Positions 3,447 through 61,300 of a stretch of 64,000 nucleotides of DNA are shown here, in pieces. The position numbers and the translations under genes were made by a program. The stretch lies in assembly GCF_055900595.2 (NCBI RefSeq), contig NZ_CM148325.1; one strand, written 5' to 3'. Position 1 is the stretch's first letter. Every line of letters begins with the position of its first letter. Under the pieces are notes generated by a model. It saw only the letters and a list, made by a program, of their open reading frames with translations. It made no database searches and was not told the origin of the DNA.

Positions 3447-4882
3447 TTTGCCTCCGATGCCAGTTCGTCAAAGACGTCTTTGCCGAGAGAGCATTCCGGG
3501 CACAGGAAGTTATCCGGGACTTCACTCCACGGCGTTCCTGGCGCAACGTCCTGCATTGGCTCGCCTTTTGCCGGATCGTAAATCCACTGGCAGACACTGC
3601 ACTGCATCCGTGGGCCGAGGTCAGCCGTCGTGGTGGCACAGGTTTCTTCTTTAACCACCGTATTCACCGTGCTCTGTGGCAGCGGCGAAAGCGCCCACTG
3701 ACGGGCAATTTCACGACCGTGTTCACGGCATAACTCCAGCGCGTCCTGGTCCGGTCGCCATTTGGCTTTCAGGCTAAGCGACATTTCGAAACCTGCATCC
3801 TGCAGGCGTGTGGAAAGACGATCCACCGCACCGCCGCTCCAGCCGTGAGAGCCGAAAGCACTGGCGCGTTTGTTACGGAAGCGTAATCCGGTCATCTCCT
3901 CCACCAGCCCGGCGATTTTCGGCATCATCACGTTATTCATCGTCGACGTGCCGACCAGCACGCCTTTTGAGCGGAAGACATTGGTCAGGATTTCGTTTTT
4001 ATCGCTTCGGGCAACGTTGAAAATTTTCACCGCCACGCGTGGGTCGGTTTCCGCAATACCCTGGGCGATAGCATCGGCCATCATGCGGGTATTATTCGAC
4101 ATGGTGTCGTAGAAAATGGTGATTCTGTCTTCCTGATAATCCGCCGCCCATTTCAGGTACAGCTCGACAATTTGCGTCGGGTTATCGCGCCATACCACGC
4201 CGTGAGAGGTCGCTATCATATCGACCGGCAAGTTAAAGCCCAGGATCTCGGTGATTTTCGGCGTTACCAGGCGGCTGAACGGTGTCAGGATATTGGCGTA
4301 GTAACGCTGACACTGCTCGAAAAGCTCGGTCTGATCCACTTCATCGTTGAAGAGATGCTCGTCGCAGTAGTGCTGACCGAAAGCATCGTTACTGAACAGC
4401 ACCGCGTCGCCCGTCAGGTAAGTCATCATGCTGTCCGGCCAGTGCAGCATTGGCGTTTCGACAAAAATGAGTTGTTTGCCGTTGCCGATATCCAGCGTGT
4501 CGCCGGTTTTCACCACGTTGAAATTCCACTCCGGATGATGGTGATGACCATTTATTGAGTCGATAGCGTTGGCAGTACAATAGATCGGCGTATCGGGAAT
4601 TTGCGCCATCAGTTCGGTCAGCGCCCCGGCGTGGTCCTCTTCAGCATGGTTAATCACGATGTAATCGATATCCGCCAGATCGATTTCATTACGCAGGTTC
4701 TGCACAAATTCGCGGCTGAATTTATGGTCGACGGTGTCGATCAGTACGTTTTTTTCTTCGCGGATGAGGTAGCTGTTGTAACTGCTGCCGCGCAGCGTTT
4801 TATATTCTGTACCGTGAAAATCACGCACTTCCCAGTCACGTTGACCAACCCAATGAATGTTATTTTTCACCACAATAGACAT
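3443..4882 (-). CDS. norV: Anaerobic nitric oxide reductase flavorubredoxin
   Basis: 479-aa ORF; metallo-beta-lactamase/flavodoxin core and C-terminal rubredoxin Cys pairs (CSVCQWIYD...CPECS). Confidence 0.94.
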
Positions 4883-18711: not shown

Positions 18712-18804
18712 GGTGAGGTGGCCGAGAGGCTGAAGGCGCTCCCCTGCTAAGGGAGTATGCGGTCAAAAGCTGCATCCGGGGTTCGAATCCCCGCCTCACC
18801 GCCA
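18712..18804 (+). tRNA. serV: tRNA-Ser (GCT anticodon)
   Basis: 93-nt class II tRNA with long variable arm, GGTGAGGTGGCCGAGAGG...CGCCTCACCGCCA. Confidence 0.9.
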
Positions 18805-18807
18805 TTT

Positions 18808-18884
18808 GCATCCGTAGCTCAGCTGGATAGAGTACTCGGCTACGAACCGAGCGGTCGGAGGTTCGAATCCTCCCGGATGCACCA
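18808..18884 (+). tRNA. tRNA-Arg (ACG anticodon), copy 1
   Basis: 77-nt GCATCCGTAGCTCAGCTGGATAGAGTACTCGGCTACGAACCGAGCGGTCGGAGGTTCGAATCCTCCCGGATGCACCA. Confidence 0.92.
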
Positions 18885-18946
18885 TATTCTACGAAATCTT
18901 CAGCAATGAAGGTGTCGAAGAGGTGGCGGTACTAACCGCAAGCACC

Positions 18947-19019
18947 AGGGAGGATAACGTTGCTTTAGCAACGGCCCGAAGGGCGAGCCGTAAGGCGAGT
19001 AATCCTCCCGGATGCACCA
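18947..19019 (+). other. tRNA-Arg 3'-end remnant (aatcctcccggatgcacca) embedded in a 73-nt insert with internal inverted repeat (gggagga...tcctccc)
   Basis: 19-nt exact copy of tRNA-Arg T-arm/acceptor 3' end without a 5' half, seen directly in spacer after copy 1. Confidence 0.6.
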
Positions 19020-19083
19020 TCTCTTACTTGATACGGCTTTAGTAGCGGTATCAAAAAATCTGCAGTAAAGTAAGTTTCCCGAT

Positions 19084-19160
19084 GCATCCGTAGCTCAGCT
19101 GGATAGAGTACTCGGCTACGAACCGAGCGGTCGGAGGTTCGAATCCTCCCGGATGCACCA
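19084..19160 (+). tRNA. tRNA-Arg (ACG anticodon), copy 2
   Basis: Identical 77-nt sequence. Confidence 0.92.
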
Positions 19161-19262
19161 TATTCTCCGTAATCATCAGTGATGATGGTTAAGATGGATT
19201 TTCTTATTTGATATGGCTTTAGTAGCGGTATCAATATCAGCAGTAAAATAAGTTTTCCCGAT

Positions 19263-19339
19263 GCATCCGTAGCTCAGCTGGATAGAGTACTCGGCTACGA
19301 ACCGAGCGGTCGGAGGTTCGAATCCTCCCGGATGCACCA
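19263..19339 (+). tRNA. tRNA-Arg (ACG anticodon), copy 3
   Basis: Identical 77-nt sequence. Confidence 0.92.
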
Positions 19340-24959: not shown

Positions 24960-26498
24960 TTAGTGCGCACCGCCTCCGCCGCCACCTGCGCCAAATGGCG
25001 GTTTAGCAAACCACACCAGCCCCAGCAGGACGAGGAATATCCCGGCTGACATCCAGAAGATCTCATTGGCGGAAATAATCAGCCCCTGATTGGTGATCTG
25101 CTGGGCAATCCAGCCTGATGCCTGTTGTTGCGTCATCCCCAGCCCTTCCAGTTGGCTGTACATCGCCTGAGCGTTCGGGTTAAACGGGTTTACCGACTCG
25201 GTTAACTGTGCGTGGTGCATCGACTCGCGGTTAGTCCACATGGTGGTGGTGATGGATGTGCCGATAGACCCCGCCAGCGTTCGCGTAAAGTTAGAGAGGC
25301 TCGATGCCGCCGCCAGTCGTTCCGGTGGCAAACCAGACAGCGTAATGGTGGTCAGCGGCATAAAGAAGCAGGCCACTGCGAAGCCCTGGATAAACTGCGG
25401 CCAGGCCGACGCACCAAAATCCATACCCGGTTCAAAGGTATAGGCACGCCAGTAGAAGCAGACGGCATACATAATAAAGCTGAAGGTTACCAGCCGCCGC
25501 ATATCCAGTTTATGCGCGAAGCGGCCGATAATCGGCGACAGGATCACCGGAATAATCCCTACCGGCGCAGAGGCCAAACCTGCCCAGGTCGCCGTGTAAC
25601 CGTAGACCTCCTGCAACAACTGCGGCAGCAGAACAATCGCGCCGAAGTAGAGCATATACGCGAGGCTGATACACAAGCAGCCGATGGTGAAGTTGCGCGA
25701 CTTAAACAACGACAGATCGACTATCGGGTTATCGTCGGTCAGCTCCCAGACAATCAGGAAGCAGATAGCCACCACCGCCACCACGGTGAGGATGATTATT
25801 TCCTGCGATGAGAACCAGTCCAGCTCTTTACCGCGGTCGAGCATAATCTGCAGGCTGCCGATACCAATCACCAGCAGTGCCAGCCCCACGGCATCAATCC
25901 GCCGCCGTTCGGTGCGGGTTTCGCGTCCGCGCAGGGTTTGCAGTGTCATCAACACCACCGCCACGCCAATCGGCACGTTGATGAAGAATATCCAGCCCCA
26001 GTGGTAATTATCGCTGATATAACCGCCGAGGATCGGGCCGCAAATTGGCGCGACAATCACCGTCATCGACCACAACGCCAGCGCGATCGAGCGTTTGGCT
26101 GGCGGGTAGTTATTCAGCAATAGACTTTGCGAAAGCGGGATCAATGGCCCGGCGACAATCCCCTGAATCACGCGGAAGAAGATCAGCATATTCAGGCTGC
26201 TGGAGACACCACATGCCCACGATGCAATAGCGAAGGCGATGGTCGACCAGAGGAACAGCTTCACTTCCCCAACACGTTTTGCCAGCCAGCCGGTAAGCGG
26301 GATCGAGATGGCATTCGCCACCCCGAAAGAAGTGATTACCCACGTTCCCTGGCTGAGCGATGAGCCCAGATTCCCGGCGATAGTGGGGATCGCCACGTTA
26401 GCAATGGTGGAGTCCAGCACCTGCATGAATGTCGCTAGTGACAGCGCAATCGTCATAATGACCAGTTGCGCGCCTTCCAGCGGTTTTTGCTGTTGCAT
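24960..26498 (-). CDS. emrB: Multidrug efflux MFS permease EmrB
   Basis: Track ORF 515 aa; probable start MQQQKPLEGAQLVIM at 26498; 14-TM MFS. Confidence 0.95.
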   Translation of the reverse strand: MQQQKPLEGAQLVIMTIALSLATFMQVLDSTIANVAIPTIAGNLGSSLSQGTWVITSFGVANAISIPLTGWLAKRVGEVKLFLWSTIAFAIASWACGVSSSLNMLIFFRVIQGIVAGPLIPLSQSLLLNNYPPAKRSIALALWSMTVIVAPICGPILGGYISDNYHWGWIFFINVPIGVAVVLMTLQTLRGRETRTERRRIDAVGLALLVIGIGSLQIMLDRGKELDWFSSQEIIILTVVAVVAICFLIVWELTDDNPIVDLSLFKSRNFTIGCLCISLAYMLYFGAIVLLPQLLQEVYGYTATWAGLASAPVGIIPVILSPIIGRFAHKLDMRRLVTFSFIMYAVCFYWRAYTFEPGMDFGASAWPQFIQGFAVACFFMPLTTITLSGLPPERLAAASSLSNFTRTLAGSIGTSITTTMWTNRESMHHAQLTESVNPFNPNAQAMYSQLEGLGMTQQQASGWIAQQITNQGLIISANEIFWMSAGIFLVLLGLVWFAKPPFGAGGGGGGAH

Positions 26499-29620: not shown

Positions 29621-30805
29621 TTAATTTGCGGCTTCCTGACGATGAAAACCTCGCCACCAGACCAGTAAGTTAACCAGGGCAATCGTCGCGCCAGCCAGAC
29701 AAACGCCAGACCAACCGCCATGTTGCCAGGCTGAGGCTGAAATTAGCGAACCGGCGGCACCGCCAATAAAGTAGCTGGTCATGTAACCTGCGGTCAGGCG
29801 ATTACGCGCATCAGGGTGTATTCGATAAATTACCGTCTGGTTAGTGATATGCACGCCCTGCACGGTGAGGTCCAGCACCAGGATGCCGATAATCAAGGCC
29901 AGTACGGAAGTGTGGCCAAACCAGATAGCAAGCCATGAAAGTAACAGCAGCAGCAGACCGAAAGTTGTGGTGTGGTGCGATTTGCCCTTATCGGCAAAAC
30001 CGCCCGCCGGACGAGCGCCCAACGCTCCGGCAGCTCCCGCGAGTCCAAACAGACCAATGACGCCATCGCTGTAGTTAAAAGGTGGAGCGGCGAGCAAAAA
30101 GGCCATTGAGGTCCAGAGAATGCTGAAGTTGGCAAAGGTCAGGCAGCCCAGCAACGCGCGGGTGCGCAGAATTTTATCGCTGATAAACATACTGAAAACG
30201 GAACCTAACAACTGTGGATAGTTGAGGTGGGTTTCTGATTTCATCTGCGGCAGGCCGCGCCATAACGCCAGCGCCATCAGTGCCATTAACACCGAGGCAA
30301 CCCAAAAGACGGTGCGCCAGCCGCCGAGGTTTGCCAGCAACCCGGCAACGGTTCGTGCCAGCAAGATCCCCAACAGCAGCCCGCTCATAATGGTGCCGAC
30401 CACTTTGCCGCGTTTGTCCGGTGAAGCCAGCGTCGCTGCCAGCGGAACCAGAATTTGTGCCACGACCGAGAATAAACCGGTTAATGCCGTACCGAGGATC
30501 ATCATCGCCAGCGACTGACTGCTGGCGGTAATCAACATACCGCCCGCTGCCAGTAAGGTCATCGAGACAATCAGGCGGCGGCGTTCAAACATATCACCGA
30601 GGGGAACAAGAAACAGCAGACCTGCGGCATAGCCCAACTGCGCGGCGGTAACAATAAAGCCCGCCGAACTGGCGGAAAGGGAAAAGTTACGCGCGATGGT
30701 GTCGAGTAATGGCTGGGCGTAATAGTTACTGGCTACCGCCAGACCGGTGGCGATAGACATCAGCACGATCAGTGCCGGGCTAAGCTCATGATTAGGTTTA
30801 GTCAT
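29621..30805 (-). CDS. ygaY: MFS transporter YgaY (intact here)
   Basis: 394 aa uninterrupted MFS ORF between ygaZ and proX. Confidence 0.8.
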   Translation of the reverse strand: MTKPNHELSPALIVLMSIATGLAVASNYYAQPLLDTIARNFSLSASSAGFIVTAAQLGYAAGLLFLVPLGDMFERRRLIVSMTLLAAGGMLITASSQSLAMMILGTALTGLFSVVAQILVPLAATLASPDKRGKVVGTIMSGLLLGILLARTVAGLLANLGGWRTVFWVASVLMALMALALWRGLPQMKSETHLNYPQLLGSVFSMFISDKILRTRALLGCLTFANFSILWTSMAFLLAAPPFNYSDGVIGLFGLAGAAGALGARPAGGFADKGKSHHTTTFGLLLLLLSWLAIWFGHTSVLALIIGILVLDLTVQGVHITNQTVIYRIHPDARNRLTAGYMTSYFIGGAAGSLISASAWQHGGWSGVCLAGATIALVNLLVWWRGFHRQEAAN

Positions 30806-38400: not shown

Positions 38401-38608
38401 GATTCGTATTTCCGTTTAAAATGAAGATACGGCGCGATGATACGCGTCGGGTTGTCTCTCTGTTGATACAGAGATACTAGATGTAGTTGAAAAAAGATTC
38501 AACCATACAAGATATGGGAATTTTAGATTGATTACACCACCGATGAATGGCTCAACGGGGTAGGGGATTTTGTGTTTTTTTGCCGGGTGATTGCCCGGCA
38601 TCAGGAAG

Positions 38609-39040
38609 TTACATCCGCATGGAAACGGCCAGGCGGTTAAAGCAATTCATCAGCCCGATGGCAAATGTTAAGTCGCTGATTTCTGCTGCGCTGAAATGCT
38701 CAAGCAAAGGCTGATAAACGTCGTCTTCCGCATGGGTTCGGGCAATATCGGTCACCGATTCCGCCCATGCCAGCGCCGCCCGCTCGCGATCGTCAAAATG
38801 ATGGCTTACGCGCCAGCCTGCCAGGGCATCCAGCTTATGCTGCGGCACACCGGATTTGCGTAATGCTTTGCTGTGCATCTCCAGACAAAATGCGCAACCA
38901 TTGATTTGCGAGACGCGCAAATAAACTAACTCCATCAGCGTAGTTTCCAGCGTGCTATTTTCCAGCGCCGTTTTGGCCTGCACCAGCGCGTTATATACCG
39001 TTGGGCTAAGTTCGTAGTAAGGCTGACGTAATGTAGTCAT
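38609..39040 (-). CDS. Carboxymuconolactone decarboxylase-family (AhpD-like) protein
   Basis: 143 aa with AhpD core motif CxxCxxxH (CAFCLEMH). Confidence 0.7.
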   Translation of the reverse strand: MTTLRQPYYELSPTVYNALVQAKTALENSTLETTLMELVYLRVSQINGCAFCLEMHSKALRKSGVPQHKLDALAGWRVSHHFDDRERAALAWAESVTDIARTHAEDDVYQPLLEHFSAAEISDLTFAIGLMNCFNRLAVSMRM

Positions 39041-39127
39041 ACAGTTTCTCCTCTTATTAACGCCCGCAATGTAGCACTATAATGGACTGCTAAAGAGAGC
39101 CATAAATTACCTAAAAAAGCAGACCAT

Positions 39128-40462
39128 ATGCCGCGCTATCAGGATATCGCCCGTCAGTTAAAAACGGCTATTGAGCAAGGGGAACTGAAACCCGGCGCAA
39201 GGCTACCTTCAAGTCGTACCTGGTCGCAGGAACTGGGGATGTCTCGATCCACTGTCGAAAATGCGTATGCTGAGCTGGTGGCGCAAGGATGGCTGATCAG
39301 GCGGGGACAGGCTGGCACATTTGTCAGTGAGCAGATATATCCACAACAATCTACTGTACAAGTTGTGGCTTTTGCCGGTGAAAGTCAGCAACCGTTGCCA
39401 TTTCAAATGGGATTACCCGCACTCGATCTCTTTCCGCGAGAGCTGTGGGCGCGGGTGATGGGGCGTCGCCTTCGTACCCAGACGCGCTTTGATTTGGCTT
39501 TAGGCGATGTCTGCGGTGAGGCGGCGTTGCGTGAGGCAATAGTTGATTACTTACGCGTTTCACGTGGGATTGATTGTCAGCCAGAGCAGGTCTTTATCAC
39601 TCACGGTTATGCGGCCTCAATGGCTTTAATTCTGCACGCGCTGGCGAAACCGGGAAACGGGATGTGGATGGAAGATCCCGGCTTTCCACTGATTCGCCCG
39701 ATTGTCACTCGCCACGGTGTGGAAATTTTGCCTGTGCCGGTTGATGACAACGGACTGGATATCACAAGCGGAATACAAAATTATCCTGATGCGTGTTTTG
39801 CCCTGATAACACCAGCACACCAAAGCCCGCTGGGTGTGGCGCTCTCTTTAGCGCGCAGGCATCAGATACTGGAATGGGCAGAGCGTAGTCAGGCATGGAT
39901 TATTGAAGATGATTATGACAGTGAGTTTCGCTATCACGGTAAGCCGTTACCGGCGTTAAAAAGTCTCGATGCACCGCAGCGGGTAATTTATGCCGGAACA
40001 TTCAGCAAAGCACTATTTCCTGCATTGCGCTGTGCGTGGCTGGTGGTGCCGGTGAAGCAAATTGCACAATTCCGCCACCAGGCGTCACTGGCTCCATGTG
40101 CGGTACCTGTTCTATGGCAGAACACACTGGCAGACTTTCTTCGCGAGGGGCATTTCTGGCGGCATCTGAAGAAAATGCGTCAGCATTATGCTCAACGTCG
40201 GCAATGGATTGAGCAAGCGTTGACGCAGCAGGGATTTCAGGTTGTGCCGCAGAAAGGTGGTATCCAGATGGTGATCAGAATGATGGGCGATGATATTGCC
40301 CATGCGCGTAAAGCCAATGCTGCAGGCCTTGCGGTGCAGGCACTTAGCGACTGGCGTATCCGCTCAAGTGGGGAAGGTGGATTACTTCTCTCTTTTACCA
40401 ATATCGTTAACGAAGGTATGGCGCGACAGGTAGCACAACAATTACGTAAAGCCTTAAGCTAA
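39128..40462 (+). CDS. MocR-type (GntR HTH + PLP aminotransferase-like) transcriptional regulator
   Basis: 444 aa; N-terminal GntR wHTH (SSRTWSQELGMSRSTVENAY) and class I aminotransferase-like domain with candidate PLP lysine (TFSKALFP); divergent from AhpD-like gene. Confidence 0.72.
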   Translation: MPRYQDIARQLKTAIEQGELKPGARLPSSRTWSQELGMSRSTVENAYAELVAQGWLIRRGQAGTFVSEQIYPQQSTVQVVAFAGESQQPLPFQMGLPALDLFPRELWARVMGRRLRTQTRFDLALGDVCGEAALREAIVDYLRVSRGIDCQPEQVFITHGYAASMALILHALAKPGNGMWMEDPGFPLIRPIVTRHGVEILPVPVDDNGLDITSGIQNYPDACFALITPAHQSPLGVALSLARRHQILEWAERSQAWIIEDDYDSEFRYHGKPLPALKSLDAPQRVIYAGTFSKALFPALRCAWLVVPVKQIAQFRHQASLAPCAVPVLWQNTLADFLREGHFWRHLKKMRQHYAQRRQWIEQALTQQGFQVVPQKGGIQMVIRMMGDDIAHARKANAAGLAVQALSDWRIRSSGEGGLLLSFTNIVNEGMARQVAQQLRKALS

Positions 40463-52122: not shown

Positions 52123-52342
52123 TTATTGTGATCAAAAGCAACAAATTAGTAACATTTAATGAAGGGTATTAAGGCAAAGGAGACAGGAAATGAATAACTA
52201 AAGCAACAGGTTAGGGAGAGCTACCATCAGAGAACAGATTATCTGGTCGATAAAAAACAGTAAATGGCTTCACTGCAAAATGACCGTTAGTAAACTAAAC
52301 ATATCATCTGCCCCGTTTTAGCGGGGCAGATATAACATTAAA

Positions 52343-54595
52343 TTACAAATAGAAATAGTTCGGCGGTTCTCCTGTTTTCCCTAAAAGAAGAGCGCTGCGC
52401 CCAGGAATATTGATATTTAGAGCTCCGCCTCTAAGCGTAAATACTTTACCAGGGGGAATACTTTTGCGTGTATTATTATTATTAATGGTAACGCTATTAC
52501 TCCCCATGTTTTTATATATTCCTGGTTGCAATTTGTTAGGCCAGGTACCTTCAACTTCTTCGTTTCCTTTATTTATTATAACTAGTCCATCATGAGGAGA
52601 GTGATTAATGTTCACAGAATCCCCACGACTAAAGGCCAGAACATTTTTAGTTGCAAATACACCCTCAAATGCGCTCCATATTCCTTCTTTATCTATATAT
52701 AATGCGTGGAATTCATTGTAGAGCTGCTGATAGGTAGAGCAACCTTTATTAAGCCACGCCTCACCGCCGACACGAGTGGACCCATCATCATTTTTAATCT
52801 CAGTCGTTGATTTTAATACCTGACCATCCCAGTAAACTAAAGGCCTGCTGAACGGGAGAGCGGCCATATATGCCATTGCTAATTGTTCATCTTGCTGATG
52901 GTTAAATAAAAAGTCATTGAAAAGATTACCATTGTTAGGGAAATCGTGGTTGATGTTAATCAATATCCGTCTTTCTGATGGGATGCTTGAGATTGCGGAA
53001 CCCGGTTTTGATGCAAGGGTTTGGAGATCTCCACCGAATGAAAAGGCTTGTATCGTCTTCATGAGCAATGAAAAATCAATGGCGCTTAAATCATCTCTTT
53101 CATAAAGCAGCGATGACATTTGTTGTTCATCTAACGGACAAGTTACCAGGTATTCCATGTAATTCATAACAGCTTTTTTTTGATATTTTGGATTAAATAA
53201 ATTTGTATTGTGCAACCGCTCATTATAATTTTTAAGCGGTGGGGTTATCGACCTCTCTATTTGTTCATGTTTTGAGTGTTTTGCTGCATCATAACGTAAA
53301 CCTCGTACGCCATATTTTCGCATTTCACGAACGTATTGATTTTGCAACATAATAACCTGGTCACTTTTGGGTGTTGTTTTAGGCATTCCATTTAAACGCT
53401 TTTCTTTTAATGCATGGAGGTTTTCCCATTCATCCTTAGAAATATTATCTTTACTTGCTTCGAAGTCTTTTGCAGTGAGATGTATATCTTCTGGATGGAT
53501 TTGGTCACGTTCTTTTGTTACTGGATCTATAATAAAGGGAATCAAGACCTGACCTTGCCAATAGCCAGGGATACCACTTTCTATATCTTTACTAATCTTC
53601 GCTCGTATATCGGCAGAGGGATAATCCAGATCATTTTTACCACTACCCCCGATTCCCATAAAGTTAAATGTATAATCAGGAATGATATCGATGCCAAATT
53701 TTTTGGCATCTTTAACCAATGCGATAAAATCCTGCAAATCTCCCATTGGATTATGGATGGTACAAAGATCTTCGGGTTGATAAGCGTGATACCAGTAACC
53801 TTTTTCTTCTTCAGGTGTTTCTGGTCCGTCGGCGCGGAAAGTTGTTACGGGAGGGATTTGTATATAACCATAATGGCAACGTGCAAACTCGGCCATATTT
53901 TTCCTGATTTGCTGGTAGGTGGCATTAAAAGCATGAAGAATCGCCTCGCCAGGTTTTTTGGGTGTGATGATTTCACATTGTGATTTCTGATCAGCAGTAA
54001 GAGATTTACGCTCAAGTGTTTGCCGTAGATGTTCTGGATTGATTAATATTTTAAATGTTTCTTGCTGGCCGGAAGGTGACGTTACGTTAATATTATATAC
54101 ATCAGCTGCCAGTTCATAGTCAGGAATGTTAATAGCATATGCAACATACTTATCTTTTGGAGACGGTTTGTCAGATATAATGTGAGTGAAATGTTCAGCT
54201 GGACCATACTGATGAACACCGCTGTTATCACCTCTTTCAATCATTGTATCTCGTTGATAAACCCATGTTTTTCCTTCTCCTATCCTGTCTGGCGCTGTAA
54301 TGCTACGCTGTGCTGCTTTATTCAACTCTCGGTAAGTTGTATCTGGAAAAAGGGAAATTTTATAATCGTTTTTTAACAGATCATTAATGACTTTTTCTGC
54401 GTGAAAAGTTGATATAATTTCTCTGTCTTTTAAATCCTGAGGATAAACTCCACAAGAATTAATAATATTTGTTATACAGTTCAGATATTCTAATGTATTT
54501 AATTTGGAATTTAGATCCCCGTCAGTAATGTTCCATGATAACAATGTGGGGTTGTCGATAGGTAAATTTCTTGGTCCTGGTTTTATAGAAAACAT
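52343..54595 (-). CDS. ygaQ: Uncharacterized 750-aa protein YgaQ (apparently intact); weak resemblance to GH13 alpha-amylase catalytic-region motifs
   Basis: Uninterrupted AT-rich ORF between csiD and tRNA-ileY; FGIDIIPDYTFNFMG segment is GH13-like but the function call is low-confidence. Confidence 0.6.
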   Translation of the reverse strand: MFSIKPGPRNLPIDNPTLLSWNITDGDLNSKLNTLEYLNCITNIINSCGVYPQDLKDREIISTFHAEKVINDLLKNDYKISLFPDTTYRELNKAAQRSITAPDRIGEGKTWVYQRDTMIERGDNSGVHQYGPAEHFTHIISDKPSPKDKYVAYAINIPDYELAADVYNINVTSPSGQQETFKILINPEHLRQTLERKSLTADQKSQCEIITPKKPGEAILHAFNATYQQIRKNMAEFARCHYGYIQIPPVTTFRADGPETPEEEKGYWYHAYQPEDLCTIHNPMGDLQDFIALVKDAKKFGIDIIPDYTFNFMGIGGSGKNDLDYPSADIRAKISKDIESGIPGYWQGQVLIPFIIDPVTKERDQIHPEDIHLTAKDFEASKDNISKDEWENLHALKEKRLNGMPKTTPKSDQVIMLQNQYVREMRKYGVRGLRYDAAKHSKHEQIERSITPPLKNYNERLHNTNLFNPKYQKKAVMNYMEYLVTCPLDEQQMSSLLYERDDLSAIDFSLLMKTIQAFSFGGDLQTLASKPGSAISSIPSERRILININHDFPNNGNLFNDFLFNHQQDEQLAMAYMAALPFSRPLVYWDGQVLKSTTEIKNDDGSTRVGGEAWLNKGCSTYQQLYNEFHALYIDKEGIWSAFEGVFATKNVLAFSRGDSVNINHSPHDGLVIINKGNEEVEGTWPNKLQPGIYKNMGSNSVTINNNNTRKSIPPGKVFTLRGGALNINIPGRSALLLGKTGEPPNYFYL

Positions 54596-55154: not shown

Positions 55155-55230
55155 GGCCCTTTAGCTCAGTGGTTAGAGCAGACGACTCATAATCGCCTGG
55201 TCGCTGGTTCAAGTCCAGCAAGGGCCACCA
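55155..55230 (+). tRNA. ileY: tRNA-Ile2 (CAT anticodon, lysidine-type)
   Basis: 76-nt GGCCCTTTAGCTCAGTGGTTAGAGCAGACGACTCATAATCGCCTGGTCGCTGGTTCAAGTCCAGCAAGGGCCACCA; identity as Ile2 rather than Met inferred from genomic position. Confidence 0.85.
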
Positions 55231-56054: not shown

Positions 56055-57425
56055 ATGGAGTTACTAGCTTATAGTATTATAAAATTAATTTGTAAAGAAG
56101 CTGCCTCAGGGACGTATAACGGTGCTCTTGAAATTTTACAAAAAATGATGTCTGAATGTAAATATCATGAAGGCAATGCTTTTGTCATTATGGGAGCCGG
56201 AGAACAATTAAAACGTATTAAATATGATGCTAATGAAAATAAATTAAAAGTAAACAACGTACACTTTGATAATAATCAAGAGTTAGTTGCTGATGGTGAG
56301 CCTGACGTAGTATTTTTAAAAAAAACGGTGTGGGAAGACCTTCTCGTTAAACTAAAGCTGGAGAACAAAGAAAATGCGGTTTCTGAAATTAACCTGTCAT
56401 CTAATAAAAATAATGTTGATCAGTTTATTGAATGCGCTAAGAGAAATGAACAGACCCTATTCGACAATATAAGAAAAAGTGATTTTCATGTTGCTTCACT
56501 TCAGCCAGGTAGAACGCGTAGTGTTATTTCAGAAACGCCGCCAAATGACTGTATGGAATCACCTAATTTATATGAAAACCACACAGATAAGGTTTCAACT
56601 GTAACTAAAAATTCTCAGCAAGTTAAAGGTCACTATGGAGATAAGTTGAAAGAAATGCAGTTGTTCCTCAACCAGATGAGCAATGCACTTCAACAGGATT
56701 CATCTTTGTTAGAGTCAAAGGAACACACCATAGATATTCAAGAAAAAACGAATAAGTTTGTGCAGCATTTTCAGCGGGTATTATTTGATAAAAATGGAAG
56801 GTCATCAGAGTTTCTACTTAATTTTTATGAGTGTTGCTATAAGTTTTTACCAAGAGCGCAGCCTCAAGATAAAATCGATAGCTATAATTCAGCACTGCAA
56901 GCTTTTTCCATCTTTTGTTCATCTACGTTGACACATAATAATGTAGGGTTTAATTTCAAATTATTTCCAGAAGTCAAGCTGTCTGGAGGAGATCTTGAAA
57001 CGGTATTCAAATACAAAAATGGCAATTTTGTCTGGGAGATAGCCAGAATTAAAATTACTCTCCCAAAAGAAGAGGGTGGTTTATATAATTTAGGTGGATT
57101 GGACTTTAAGGGGTGCTTCTTTTCTGGACAGAACTTCAGTAACTATGATATTAAATATGTGAACTGGGGGACGTCATTGTTTGATGTTGATACTCCGTGT
57201 ATTTTTAATACGCCTGCTAACAATGAGAGTTATGAAAAATCATTAAAGCCTGTGAGCGAAAACGGTTTAAATGGAGTCTTATCTGATCGTAATAAAAAAA
57301 TAAAAATGATCACGGGCGTGGCACCATTCGATGGTATTTCATCTATGGATGATGACTTTGATGATAGTTCCTCTGAGGATGAGCCCGTTGAGAATAGTCC
57401 TGTTGTGACTAGGCCCCTTGTATAA
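56055..57425 (+). CDS. Hypothetical 456-aa protein, very AT-rich, with pentapeptide-repeat-like segment and acidic Asp/Glu/Ser-rich C-terminal tail (occupies the ypjB/ypjC-like position)
   Basis: Long uninterrupted ORF in an AT-rich island; LYNLGGLDFKGCFFSGQNFSNYDIKYVNW repeat-like block; tail SSMDDDFDDSSSEDEPVENS. Confidence 0.55.
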   Translation: MELLAYSIIKLICKEAASGTYNGALEILQKMMSECKYHEGNAFVIMGAGEQLKRIKYDANENKLKVNNVHFDNNQELVADGEPDVVFLKKTVWEDLLVKLKLENKENAVSEINLSSNKNNVDQFIECAKRNEQTLFDNIRKSDFHVASLQPGRTRSVISETPPNDCMESPNLYENHTDKVSTVTKNSQQVKGHYGDKLKEMQLFLNQMSNALQQDSSLLESKEHTIDIQEKTNKFVQHFQRVLFDKNGRSSEFLLNFYECCYKFLPRAQPQDKIDSYNSALQAFSIFCSSTLTHNNVGFNFKLFPEVKLSGGDLETVFKYKNGNFVWEIARIKITLPKEEGGLYNLGGLDFKGCFFSGQNFSNYDIKYVNWGTSLFDVDTPCIFNTPANNESYEKSLKPVSENGLNGVLSDRNKKIKMITGVAPFDGISSMDDDFDDSSSEDEPVENSPVVTRPLV

Positions 57426-57741
57426 AGTTCTAAAAGCAGTTTTCAATGATAAATAAATGGCGATTTTTACAAAGAGATAATAACGTAGATTGAAATAATA
57501 TGTATTATTGATTGAGTAAACGGGATTATTCTTCACACTGCATCCATTTTGCTGTCACTACCAAAGTAAAAGGGGCCACGCTTTCACGTAACCCCTTGAT
57601 TTATTTGATAAGTTTGCGGTGTCTGAACTGGTGCTGTAATTGGTTGAAATATTTCATCTAATGTCTGGTTCAACTTTCCTTAGCTGCCTGAAAGTTTTTT
57701 TGATATTACCCATCAATAATAGGGTGACGGTGTACCACGCC

Positions 57742-57960
57742 TGACTGATGAACTGCGTGCTCAGAGTTACCACTTCAGCGCATAACCGTGGCAGCAGGCC
57801 CGGACAGAACAAACGGCTCAGGACATTATCGGTAGGGGACGTACTGGTAGTCTGTAAACTAAACCGACTGGGGCGCAGTATGCGGCATCTTGCCGTGCTG
57901 TTGGAGGAGCTGTGAGAACGTGGTATTAACTTTCGTGCTCTGACTCTACCAATATTTGCC
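57742..57960 (+). pseudogene. pinH: Serine recombinase (Pin/Hin-type DNA invertase) fragment with in-frame TGA and no intact N- or C-terminus
   Basis: Translation ...RPGQNKRLRTLSVGDVLVVCKLNRLGRSMRHLAVLLEEL*ERGINFRALT matches the conserved GDxLVVxKLDRLGRS...ERGxxFxxLT resolvase core; TGA at 57913-57915. Confidence 0.7.
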
Positions 57961-58352
57961 CAACAATGGGGGGACGAAAGCTGTAAAAGTAAAACAATCT
58001 GCAATCTCAATATTATTGTGTGATTTTTATGTGAGCAGAAGATATTCATCAGAAACGATTATGTAAATCATTTTATTTTTCCGACGGCTTCAATGTCGAA
58101 AGAAAAGAATACGCCCGTATTTCCTGAATAGATTGACTTTTTTATCCAACCACACTTCAGCGCACTGCGTTTAAAAAATGCCTCTTTCTTATGCGGAATA
58201 TCATCATTTCATCATGATGTCTTTGATGAGCGGTGAACACAATACACTTGCGCTGTCTCTTCAGGATTAATCCCCTGGTCTGGTGCCTGTGGGCTGATGT
58301 TGCAGCAGAGCTAAGGTTGCTTAAACGCTACTCAGTATTCACTTTTCAGAGG

Positions 58353-61300
58353 ATGAAATTTATGAACAGGACCAGTCCCCATTATTGTCGTCGCTCAGTA
58401 CTTTCCTTACTGATATCTGCCTTGATATATGCTCCGCCCGGGATGGCGGCCTTTACCTCTAATGTTATTGGTGTGGTAAACGATGAGACTGTAGATGGTA
58501 GCCAAAAAGTAGATGAACGAGGTACAACAAATAACACTCATATTATCAACCACGGTTATCAGGATGTTTATGGCGGGGTATCTAATGGAAGTATTATTGA
58601 ATCTGGTGGCCGTCAATATGTATCAGCCAATGGTACTCATCAGGGGCAGGCCAATAATACAGTCATTAACGGTGGCAGCCAGACAATTCTGGACGGGGGA
58701 ATTTCCACAGGGACGATAATCCAGAGTGGCAGTCAGTATGTTTATGCAGGTGGTACCAGTAATGCAACAACGATAATAAGCGGTCGTTCAACAGTAATGG
58801 GGGGAACTGCGAATGGAACAATAATTAATGGTGGGAGCCAGTCAGTATCGAGTCAGGGGCGTGTTGACGGTACGACGATAAATATGTCCGGGCATCAGGA
58901 GATTACGCAAGGAAGTCTGGCAACGAACACAACAATAGATGGGGGGTGGCAGTATGTGGACTCAAGCAGTGTAGAAAATACTACCATTAAGAATGGAGGC
59001 GAGCAAAGAACAGTTAAGAGCCATGCGCTGAACACCACAATAGATGGTGGTCTACAGGTTGTCGATTCAAGTACCGCAGAAATAACCACCATTAAGAGTG
59101 GAGGAACGCAACAATTAAATAACAGCCAGGCTATGTTCACCACGATTGAAGGCGGAACTCAGTCTATGAATAGTAAGTCAACGGCAAAAAATACTCAGAT
59201 CTATTCTGGTGGTACGCAAATTGTTGATAACACCAGCACCTCGGATGTTATTGAAATTTATTCCGGTGGCGTGCTTGATGTTAGAGGTGGTATGGCAACA
59301 AATGTTACTCAGCACGATGGCGCGGCTTTAAAAGCAATGACTGACTGGTCGACGGTGAGCGGTACGAATAGTGAAGGTGCATTCTCTATTCACAATAACG
59401 TGGCAGACAATGTGTTGCTGGAAAACGGTGGCCATTTAGACGTATATGGTTCGGCAAACAAGACGATTATTAAAGATAAAGGAACAATGTCAGTTTTAGC
59501 GAATGCTAAAGCTGATGCGACCCGAATAGATAATGGCGGGGTTATGGATGTTGCCGGAAACGCGACCAATACCATAATTAATGGTGGCACACAGAATATA
59601 AATAATCATGGTATTGCCACGGGAACCAATATCAACAGCGGAACACAAAATATCAAGAGCGGCGGGAAAGCTGACACGACAAATATCTCCTCCGGGAGCC
59701 GGCAGGTTGTTGAGAAAGATGGTACGGCAACTGGCAGCAATATTAGCACCGGAGGCTCGCTGATTGTCTATACCGGTGGTATCGCACATGGGGTTAACCA
59801 GGAGACGGGCAGTGCTTTAGTTGCCAACACGGGCGCAGGGACTGATATTGAAGGATACAACAAGCTCTCTCACTTCACTATTACCGGAGGGGAGGCTAAT
59901 TATGTTGTGCTGGAAAATACCGGCGAACTGACGGTAGTGGCTAAAACCACGGCGAAAAATACTACCGTTGATGCCGGCGGTAAGCTGATTGTCCAGAAGG
60001 AGGCTAAAACAGATACCACCAGACTTAATAATGGTGGCGTTCTGGAGGTTCAGGACGGTGGTGAGGCTAAGCATGTTGAGCAACAATCCGGCGGCGCATT
60101 AATTGCTTCCACGACTTCCGGAACACTTATCGAAGGAACCAACAGTTATGGTGATGCTTTCTACATCAGGAATTCAGAAGCTAAAAATGTAGTGCTGGAA
60201 AACGCTGGCTCATTAACAGTCGTTACTGGTTCCCGGGCAGTTGATACGATTATTAATGCCAACGGCAAAATGGATGTTTATGGAAAAGATGTTGGCACTG
60301 TACTCAATAGTGCGGGCACCCAAACAATATATGCCAGTGCCACTTCTGATAAAGCAAATATCAAAGGTGGCAAGCAAACGGTATATGGTTTAGCCACTGA
60401 GGCAAATATCGAAAGTGGTGAACAAATTGTTGATGGTGGGTCAACAGATAAAACGCACATCAAAGGCGGCACGCAAACCGTTCAGAATTATGGTAAGGCG
60501 ATCAATACCGATATCGTCTCTGGCCTGCAACAAATTATGGCAAACGGGACAGCGGAAGGTTCCATTATTAATGGCGGTTCACAGGTAGTTAATGAGGGCG
60601 GTCTGGCTGAAAACTCGGTACTTAATGACGGCGGCACACTCGATGTGCGGGAGAAAGGCAGCGCTACGGGGATACAGCAGAGTAGCCAGGGCGCGCTGGT
60701 GGCAACCACCAGGGCGACGCGGGTCACAGGGACACGCGCTGATGGCGTCGCGTTCAGCATCGAGCAGGATGCGGCGAACAATATCCTGCTGGCAAATGGC
60801 GGCGTGTTAACCGTGGAGTCAGACACCACTTCCGCCAAAACACAGGTCAATGCGGGCGGACGGGAGATCGTCAAAACAAAAGCCACTGCGACTGGCACGA
60901 TGCTTACCGGCGGTGAACAAATCGTCGAGGGTGTGGCGAATGAGACAACGATTAACGACGGCGGAATACAAACAGTTTCGGCTAACGGTGAGGCAGTAAA
61001 AACAACGATTAATGAAGGCGGTACGCTGACAGTCAACGATAATGGCAAAGCGACAGATATCATCCAGAACAGCGGTGCCGCTCTCCAGACGAGCACGGCT
61101 AACGGTATTGAAATCAGCGGTACTCACCAGTATGGCACCTTTTCCATTGCCGGAAATTTAGCGACCAATGTGCTGCTGGAAAATGGCGGTAATTTATTGG
61201 TATTAGCAGGTACCGAAGCTCGCGATTCCACGGTTGGCAACGGTGGGGCAATGCAAAACCTGGGTCAGGACTTCGCCACAAAGGTTAATTCCGGTGGGCA

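Follow-up and report, generated by a model that had tools for sequence, protein, structure and literature searches.

Two genes that Escherichia coli K-12 carries in disrupted form, ygaY and ygaQ, are uninterrupted in a 64,000-nt stretch of E. coli DNA (contig NZ_CM148325.1 of assembly GCF_055900595.2; hereafter the window). This raises the question of whether the strain stands out as a source of ancestral, functional alleles, as an earlier note on this DNA implied, or simply shows the usual state of these loci. The two genes are:

29621-30805, minus strand: ygaY, uninterrupted open reading frame (ORF) of 394 aa with an ATG start
52343-54595, minus strand: ygaQ, uninterrupted ORF of 750 aa with an ATG start, GH13-like, in a low-GC island

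The ORF listing confirms a single reading frame of the claimed length for each gene, and the 750 open codons of ygaQ, in DNA of ~38% G+C, are far above chance expectation. In length and ends, both copies equal RefSeq coding sequences of other E. coli, annotated as a 1185-nt "MFS transporter" (major facilitator superfamily) and a 2253-nt "alpha-amylase family glycosyl hydrolase", respectively. The evidence set out below makes it very probable that both genes are genuine intact and selectively maintained alleles of loci inactivated in K-12, and that there is nothing rare about them, their intactness being the usual wild-type condition. Neither intact gene is new: both are annotated in thousands of RefSeq genomes, and their lesions are recorded in the K-12 annotation; since intact copies are both common and annotated, the finding is correct but ordinary.

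The K-12 lesions

That the K-12 copies are disrupted holds for both genes. The MG1655 annotation lists ygaY (b2681) and ygaQ (b4462) as pseudogenes, PGAP, the NCBI annotation pipeline, flags the former as "frameshifted" and the latter as "internal stop", and the pairwise alignment to K-12 that the earlier note had suggested pinpoints the lesions in each. Lesion sites of K-12 and of other genomes lie at the following window positions:

30538-30551, minus strand: site of the K-12 ygaY lesion (gene nt 255-268), from alignments
53558-53560, minus strand: ygaQ Trp346 codon TGG, which is TAG in K-12 and in ~1,082 genomes
52754-52756, minus strand: ygaQ Trp614 codon TGG, which is TAG in 2,403 of 5,426 genomes and TGG in 1,654
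53357-53359, minus strand: ygaQ Gln413 codon CAG, which is TAG in sampled O157:H7-lineage genomes, an independent lesion

The K-12 ygaY locus (b2681, formerly b2680/b2681) resembles that of the window in its placement between proX and ygaZ, in its orientation and in its DNA sequence (~96.6% identity), and the window protein is essentially identical on both sides of the K-12 lesion. At 1178 nt, compared with 1185 nt in the window, the K-12 gene has lost the 7 bp at gene nt 255-261 and reads CTG GCG GCA TGT TGA, a frameshift that ends the frame at codon 89, whereas the window copy continues uninterrupted through two 7-bp units that match imperfectly (GGCAGCG GGCGGTA). In mainstream E. coli alleles the two units form a perfect tandem repeat, made of GGCGGCA or of GCGGCAT twice over (CTG GCG GCA GGC GGC ATG in locus L012 and GCGGCAT GCGGCAT in L011, for instance), and K-12 retains one unit. 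A single unit in K-12 against a perfect tandem repeat elsewhere is the signature of replication slippage, and the ygaY pseudogene would hence represent a recent loss in K-12, in which slippage deleted one copy of the repeat.

K-12 ygaQ (b4462, originally split into ygaQ/ygaR and others) likewise occupies the same locus as the window gene, between ileY and glaH (csiD), and the two copies share a length of 2253 nt, with no indels and 95.3% DNA identity. They differ at codons 111, 346 and 614, which are TGG in the window and TAG in K-12, and at 27 further amino acid positions. The window alleles therefore belong to no pseudogene allele class, for they lack the 7-bp deletion of ygaY, the TAG codons of ygaQ at 111, 346 and 614, and the O157 TAG at 413.

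Distribution and decay in sequenced genomes

The population frequency of these lesions was assessed on 5,426 complete genomes with diagnostic 55-mers that place the variable base at position 28, and thus inside every 28-base megablast seed, an exact match to which is needed for detection. The ygaY region was found in 5,418 of the 5,426 genomes, and the K-12 deletion junction in ~353 of them (1,039 full-coverage matches minus 686 gapped ones, which correspond to intact genes); the subtraction is needed because the junction probe was built on the window sequence and the perfect repeat of mainstream alleles yields partial seeds of 31-33 nt. All the deletion carriers sampled are K-12 laboratory derivatives. 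An intact YgaY of 394 aa is encoded in E. coli, Shigella, E. fergusonii, E. albertii and E. marmotae, with a Citrobacter ortholog at 93% identity. Intact YgaY is hence near-universal in Escherichia and core to Escherichia and Citrobacter, which supports the proposal that the intact state is ancestral but does not single out this strain as a source of the allele.

The history of ygaQ is more convoluted. The W614TAG allele is present in 2,403 genomes (44%) and W614TGG in 1,654, while W346TAG is found in 1,082 and W111TAG in 1,041, and the triple amber of K-12 is a natural allele in ~19% of sequenced genomes. Among the alleles sampled the stops are nested, with 614 alone (L009, L010), 614 plus 346 (L008) and all three (K-12), which indicates that one ygaQ allele class has been shortened stepwise from the C-terminus inward; the order of gain in this class would have been W614amber, then W346amber and then W111amber. 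In the O157:H7-lineage genomes sampled, codon 614 is TGG and the gene is broken by the independent CAG>TAG change at codon 413. Other genomes show insertions of the insertion sequences (IS) IS1, IS5 or IS903, some retain the 3' half only, and in 1,214 the ygaQ region is absent altogether. When TGG-614 genomes were sampled at even rank steps, 10 of 14 were found to encode an intact ygaQ, as verified by translation, with all catalytic residues present. This ratio implies that ygaQ is intact in ~1,200 genomes, or about one fifth of the total (~22%, a rough figure with a range of 13-28% owing to the 14 genomes sampled). A count of intact YgaQ based on the 15,629 members of a 90%-identity protein cluster (P0001) was rejected, as such clusters include short fragments.

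It follows from this census that ygaQ decays across E. coli through repeated loss, by amber mutations, IS insertions and deletions, and that about one fifth of complete genomes, the window among them, keep it intact. The presence of an intact, syntenic ortholog in E. albertii indicates that the intact state is ancestral for this gene too, but the strain is again no special source of it; the commensal reference strain HS has an intact ygaQ, and its allele is much nearer to that of K-12, lying only ~11 substitutions from the single-amber allele L009.

A third gene that is disrupted in K-12 and intact in the window, ypjCB, lies in the same low-GC island as ygaQ (56055-57425, plus strand). It forms a single ORF of 456 aa in the ORF listing, the RefSeq coding sequence of a relative being 476 aa long, and its K-12 counterpart, divided into ypjC and ypjB by a CAG>TAG change at codon 133, also lacks 105 nt in a two-sequence alignment. 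All five nonsense lesions recorded in the island are amber (W111, W346, W614 and Q413 in ygaQ, and Q133 in ypjCB), comprising three TGG>TAG and two CAG>TAG changes, and none generates TAA or TGA or falls within a Dcm site (loci L002, L008-L010, L017, L018 and L034 for ygaQ and L021 for ypjCB). The chance of four ambers in four ygaQ lesions is ~0.024 if transitions alone are considered, 22 of the 56 stop-creating transitions yielding TAG, in a post hoc calculation uncorrected for multiple testing. Deamination at Dcm sites (CCWGG) was considered as a source of the TGG>TAG changes and rejected, none of the three codons lying in a CCWGG context.

Purifying selection on the intact alleles

The ratio of nonsynonymous to synonymous substitution rates (dN/dS), computed by the Nei-Gojobori method, is low for both genes. 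In ygaY it ranges from 0.007 to 0.024 between the window and two mainstream alleles, despite a dS of 0.14-0.17, and in ygaQ its median is 0.10 over 36 pairwise comparisons of nine intact alleles. These values indicate that purifying selection maintains intact ygaY and ygaQ, and they support the portrayal of the window alleles as ancestral and functional, though not as rare.

The evidence for maintenance must be weighed against the reading in which one or both genes are intact in appearance only, having been silenced by missense mutation, lack of expression or H-NS, or restored in appearance by assembly error. For ygaQ, several observations point in this direction. The gene supplied one of six intragenic promoters used in PMC7229825, which stem from an analysis of horizontally acquired, H-NS-silenced genes, and the encoded protein has Phe312 in place of a histidine of GH13 region I (see below). 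Furthermore, in the nearest genome, which is 99.98% identical to the window over 33 kb, ygaQ is frameshifted by +1 through a single-G difference in a G-run at codon 111. Such a one-base difference is typical of sequencing errors, and it indicates that the gene is dispensable or error-prone even in this lineage; the G-run in question, however, is merely 3-4 bases long. Against this reading stand the purifying selection seen on the intact alleles of both genes, the conservation of the YgaQ catalytic residues in every intact allele checked and the recurrence of ORFs of identical length (2253 and 1185 nt) in many independent complete genomes, which together render it improbable.

The amber-bearing alleles themselves show a pattern like that of purifying selection. 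Among the four alleles of this class (L002, L008, L009 and L010), the segregating sites comprise 18 synonymous, 15 nonsynonymous and 2 stop changes, with nonsynonymous changes far below the neutral prediction (P from 5e-5 to 3.5e-3 for kappa of 1-8). Twelve of the 15 nonsynonymous changes fall in aa 108-220, and only one of the 35 sites lies downstream of codon 614. The simplest reading of this pattern is that of a relatively young amber mutation spread by recombination onto older, selected haplotypes, but to judge from these four alleles the W614amber allele may also be not fully dead, with a 613-aa product that is still functional.

YgaY as a probable efflux-type transporter

The earlier note had described both genes as uncharacterised, and for ygaY this is essentially right, with the qualification that the K-12 gene is widely used in the literature as a neutral pseudogene locus. 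YgaY scores 143.6 bits with the Pfam MFS_1 model (PF07690; cutoff 33.4), in two stretches that correspond to the two six-helix halves of the fold. A crude Kyte-Doolittle scan gives 10 hydropathy peaks above a strict threshold, and hence an approximate count of transmembrane (TM) helices, and a motif-A-like loop (PLGDMFERRR, residues 68-77) lies just upstream of the K-12 frameshift. Weak full-length matches (residues ~11-390) tie YgaY to the PRK03545 sugar transporter model and to Cmx/CmrA, Bcr/CflA, NepI and AraJ, and the nearest solved structure to match over its full length is that of SotB, a sugar efflux transporter (6KKI, residues 13-383, E 2e-4). On this sequence evidence, YgaY is a 12-TM MFS transporter and falls in the drug/sugar-efflux-like (DHA1/SET-like) part of this superfamily. 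It resembles the efflux-type members of this part (SotB/SET, Bcr/CflA, Cmx/CmrA, NepI, AraJ) in its weak similarity over all 12 helices and its motif-A-like loop, but, unlike the named subfamilies, EmrD included, it scores below every curated cutoff. All 25 of its matches to curated NCBIfam subfamilies are far under the cutoff, the best full-length one reaching 64.2 bits where 401 are required, and YgaY thus constitutes an orthologous group of its own.

The gene is located between proVWX and ygaZH-mprA(emrR)-emrAB, all on the same strand, and the family of the protein, together with the neighboring ygaZH and mprA-emrAB, suggests that YgaY is most probably a proton-coupled exporter of a small metabolite. 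The failure to reach any NCBIfam subfamily counts against this assignment, as it makes both transport direction and substrate guesses.

YgaQ as an amylase-fold protein of a horizontally acquired island

Two features lie beside ygaQ or the low-GC island that contains it:

55155-55230, plus strand: tRNA with CAT anticodon (ileY, tRNA-Ile2; annotated in K-12 as tRNA-Ile(CAU)), bordering the low-GC ygaQ island
52305-52332, minus strand: terminator-like hairpin with an 11-bp stem directly after the ygaQ stop, from a consensus scan only and with a weak T-tract

The G+C content of ygaQ is 0.35-0.41, and that of the glaH/lhgO/gab genes beside it 0.53-0.60. The gene is AT-rich, belongs to an island next to tRNA-ileY and was acquired horizontally. 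Promoter and terminator scans around ygaY and ygaQ gave nothing above shuffled controls, except for the hairpin after ygaQ. The E. albertii ortholog is 60% identical, syntenic and likewise upstream of glaH; beyond it lie a truncated E. fergusonii relative, a handful of full-length homologs (33-39% identity) and, more distantly, ordinary GH13 amylases (23-30%). A second YgaQ-family paralog (P0135, 798 aa) occurs rarely in E. coli, on a 3-kb IS-flanked contig (locus L024); it is 39% identical to YgaQ over the catalytic region, and its longer N-terminal extension resembles that of the relative P0008.

An AlphaFold2 model of YgaQ, built on a 40-sequence alignment, has a predicted local distance difference test score (pLDDT) of 84 and a predicted template modeling score (pTM) of 0.87, and delineates the following parts and predicted catalytic positions:

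53951-54595, minus strand: N-terminal extension, aa 1-215
52346-53950, minus strand: (beta/alpha)8 barrel, domain B and C-terminal beta-sandwich, aa 216-750, from the model, Foldseek, Pfam and the alignment
53288-53290, minus strand: codon of Asp436, predicted catalytic nucleophile (GLRYDAAKH, GH13 region II), invariant in the 40-sequence alignment
53153-53155, minus strand: codon of Glu481, predicted general acid/base (region III), invariant in the same alignment
52943-52945, minus strand: codon of Asp551, predicted transition-state stabiliser (NHD, region IV), conserved in at least 90% of the 40 sequences

The extension comprises, in the model, a disordered polar tip (1-26), a confident helical module (28-92), a low-confidence stretch (93-159) and a beta/alpha module (~165-215), and its linker contains, at ~93-104, the conserved motif A-A-Q-R-S-x-x-x-P-x-R. 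The top 50 Foldseek matches are all GH13 (49 alpha-amylases and one cyclodextrin glucanotransferase, with E down to 5.6e-23), with target-normalised TM-scores of up to 0.78 against Pseudoalteromonas, Bacillus and animal alpha-amylases, and the Pfam Alpha-amylase_C model is matched at 28.5 bits (cutoff 21.2). Within the alignment, Arg434, Asp436 and Glu481 never vary, and at least 90% of sequences keep His440, His550 and Asp551. The protein can hence be confidently assigned, on the strength of the model, to the GH13 alpha-amylase fold, with a predicted triad (Asp436/Glu481/Asp551) that is intact.

Two observations temper the catalytic side of this assignment. The match to the Pfam catalytic domain (PF00128), at 21.6 bits, falls just under the gathering cutoff of 22, which makes an altered specificity or a weak activity possible. 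The region-I histidine of GH13 (D-x-x-x-N-H), which contacts subsite -1, is Phe312 in YgaQ, region I reading FNFMG in YgaQ and in its close relatives P0005 (E. albertii) and P0008, where more distant amylases have NHM. With respect to the GH13 alpha-amylases of A/B/C architecture (P. haloplanktis AHA, 1AQH/8CQG; B. subtilis AmyE, 1BAG/1UA7; and animal enzymes), YgaQ hence shares the barrel and beta-sandwich (TM-scores of 0.7-0.78) and regions II-IV (Arg434, Asp436, His440, Glu481, His550, Asp551), but differs from them in its 15-19% identity, Phe312, a large insert between regions I and II, the lack of a signal peptide and the ~215-aa N-terminal extension. Given the fold and the conserved catalytic residues, retaining chemistry on an alpha-glucosidic substrate is to be expected, possibly with an unusual specificity, and YgaQ most probably cleaves or transfers alpha-glucosidic bonds through the double-displacement mechanism of GH13. 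The extension, which is specific to the family, stands where a Sec signal would be, suggesting a location in the cytoplasm or delivery by a non-Sec route.

A different activity has been proposed for the K-12 product, and it qualifies the otherwise sound description of YgaQ as uncharacterised. In PMC4725251, overexpression of a 110-aa YgaQ from strain W3110 conferred mitomycin C resistance on a ruvAB mutant, the purified protein cut 5'-ended single-stranded DNA (ssDNA) and was characterised as a 5'-flap ssDNA nuclease, and both activities were lost in a mutant changed at several sites (D25, D27 and a C-terminal Glu-Arg-Lys). These results would fit a DNA-repair nuclease in which the amylase-like part is irrelevant. 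The 110-aa product, however, exists solely through the W111 amber, and mapped onto the full-length model it is the first half of the extension, made up of the disordered tip, the helical module and a portion of the low-confidence linker, with none of the GH13 catalytic residues. The arginine of the mutated Glu-Arg-Lys is found in K-12 alone among eight alleles compared, the other seven having glycine, and a fold search with the N-terminal region retrieved no nuclease-like fold. Lastly, the same work reported no phenotype for a ygaQ deletion in otherwise wild-type cells. A role of YgaQ as a DNA-repair nuclease is consequently very unlikely, and the assignment of YgaQ as a GH13 amylase-fold protein is preferred.

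Genomic context of the YgaQ family and type III secretion

The combination of an amylase fold with a family-specific extension in lieu of a Sec signal invites a further reading, in which YgaQ would be a substrate of a secretion system of type III (T3SS), as an injected or secreted effector with a GH13 domain that acts on alpha-glucans of the host or outside the cell, glycogen for instance, and the decay of ygaQ in many E. coli would reflect a cognate secretion system that was lost or eroded. T3SS-specific genes are indeed found near the distant full-length homologs (33-39% identity), which share the extension, in four of seven non-syntenic loci. The Aeromonas veronii homolog (P0137) adjoins an invasin-like gene, EspA, a tetratricopeptide repeat (TPR) chaperone and SseC; P0136 adjoins a NEL-domain (IpaH-type) gene, DUF4049 and Ail; P0285 is flanked by two NEL genes, a Toxin_15 (ShET2/OspD3-type) gene and leucine-rich repeat (LRR) proteins; and P0008 lies near InvH, an LRR fragment and an intimin/invasin-like adhesin. 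Of the remaining homologs, P0153 has ordinary chromosomal surroundings, and P0135 and P0141 are flanked by no more than IS elements.

Features of the proteins and of the E. coli gene are also compatible with this reading. Members of the YgaQ family lack a Sec signal, while a classical hydrophobic signal peptide is found in GH13 relatives that have no such extension. By a crude measure of composition, S, T, N, P and Q make up 43-57% of the first 30 residues in seven of eight family members, and residues 1-26 of YgaQ are predicted to be disordered. The gene itself is AT-rich, tRNA-adjacent and sporadically pseudogenised. A precedent is provided by the Chlamydiae, for which T3SS delivery of glycogen-metabolism enzymes has been proposed (PMC7935935). 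Those enzymes (GlgE, TreS-Mak and others) lack Sec signals, and YgaQ-family genes for their part lie amid T3SS effector genes in several bacteria; the E. coli ygaQ locus has no T3SS neighbors, and the likeness drawn here is one of context.

Neither the E. coli nor the E. albertii ygaQ locus contains T3SS genes, and pathogenicity islands gather many genes that are not effectors. Intact ygaQ is under purifying selection (dN/dS ~0.10) in strains such as the commensal HS, and the O157:H7 lineage, which is positive for the locus of enterocyte effacement (LEE), carries an amber in ygaQ; these two observations weaken the effector reading. Moreover, a plasmid search for the family returned mislabelled E. 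coli chromosomes and ordinary Vibrionaceae amylases, with no homolog on a virulence plasmid, and a literature search found no paper tying the family to ETT2, the second T3SS of E. coli, or to T3SS effectors. The case for secretion is hence one of guilt by association, and delivery of YgaQ by a T3SS is a possibility to be entertained rather than favored. The broader proposal, that YgaQ and its relatives might constitute an unrecognised family of type III-secreted effectors on a GH13 scaffold, in which an extension of ~200-300 aa replaces the Sec signal and inactivation by amber or IS would mark effector loss after attrition of a secretion system (perhaps ETT2), is if anything slightly more doubtful.

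Other features of the window

The segment at 56699-59050, which begins in the 3' part of ypjCB and reaches the 5' end of the ypjA-like gene, at the position of the K-12 pinH remnant, is 89.4% identical to K-12, compared with ~95.5% in the neighboring 16 kb, and by this comparison looks like a local hyper-divergent or recombinant segment. The ypjA-like gene, a 1600-aa AIDA-type autotransporter ORF at 58233-63035 (plus strand), is 94.6% identical to its K-12 counterpart and is abutted by the ssrA tmRNA gene (63196-63557, minus strand). CP4-57, the 22-kb cryptic prophage that lies between ssrA and ypjA in K-12, is absent from the window, the match to K-12 jumping from position 3957 to position 25965 of the K-12 locus. 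A two-gene insertion that K-12 lacks is present between ygaM and nrdH (38516-40460), its genes lying at 38609-39040 (minus strand) and 39128-40462 (plus strand); the annotation of the 99.98%-identical relative gives them as a pyridoxal phosphate (PLP)-dependent aminotransferase-family (GntR/MocR-type) protein and a carboxymuconolactone decarboxylase-family protein. Lastly, a tRNA cluster at 18712-19339 comprises tRNA-Ser(GCT) and three tRNA-Arg(ACG) genes, and an antisense "tRNA-Arg(TCG)" that ARAGORN places at 18828-18899 is probably a false positive opposite a real tRNA.

Significance

The intactness of ygaY and ygaQ in this strain matters little as it was first put forward, and the practical yield of the analysis consists of the exact K-12 lesions and their population frequencies. 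A word of caution also follows for the literature, in that the published "YgaQ nuclease" is the amber-truncated N-terminal fragment of a 750-aa amylase-fold protein. As a further by-product, the association of the YgaQ family with T3SS genes provides a testable lead. If true, the type III secretion reading would extend effector biology by an enzymatic class and account for the decay of ygaQ in many E. coli.

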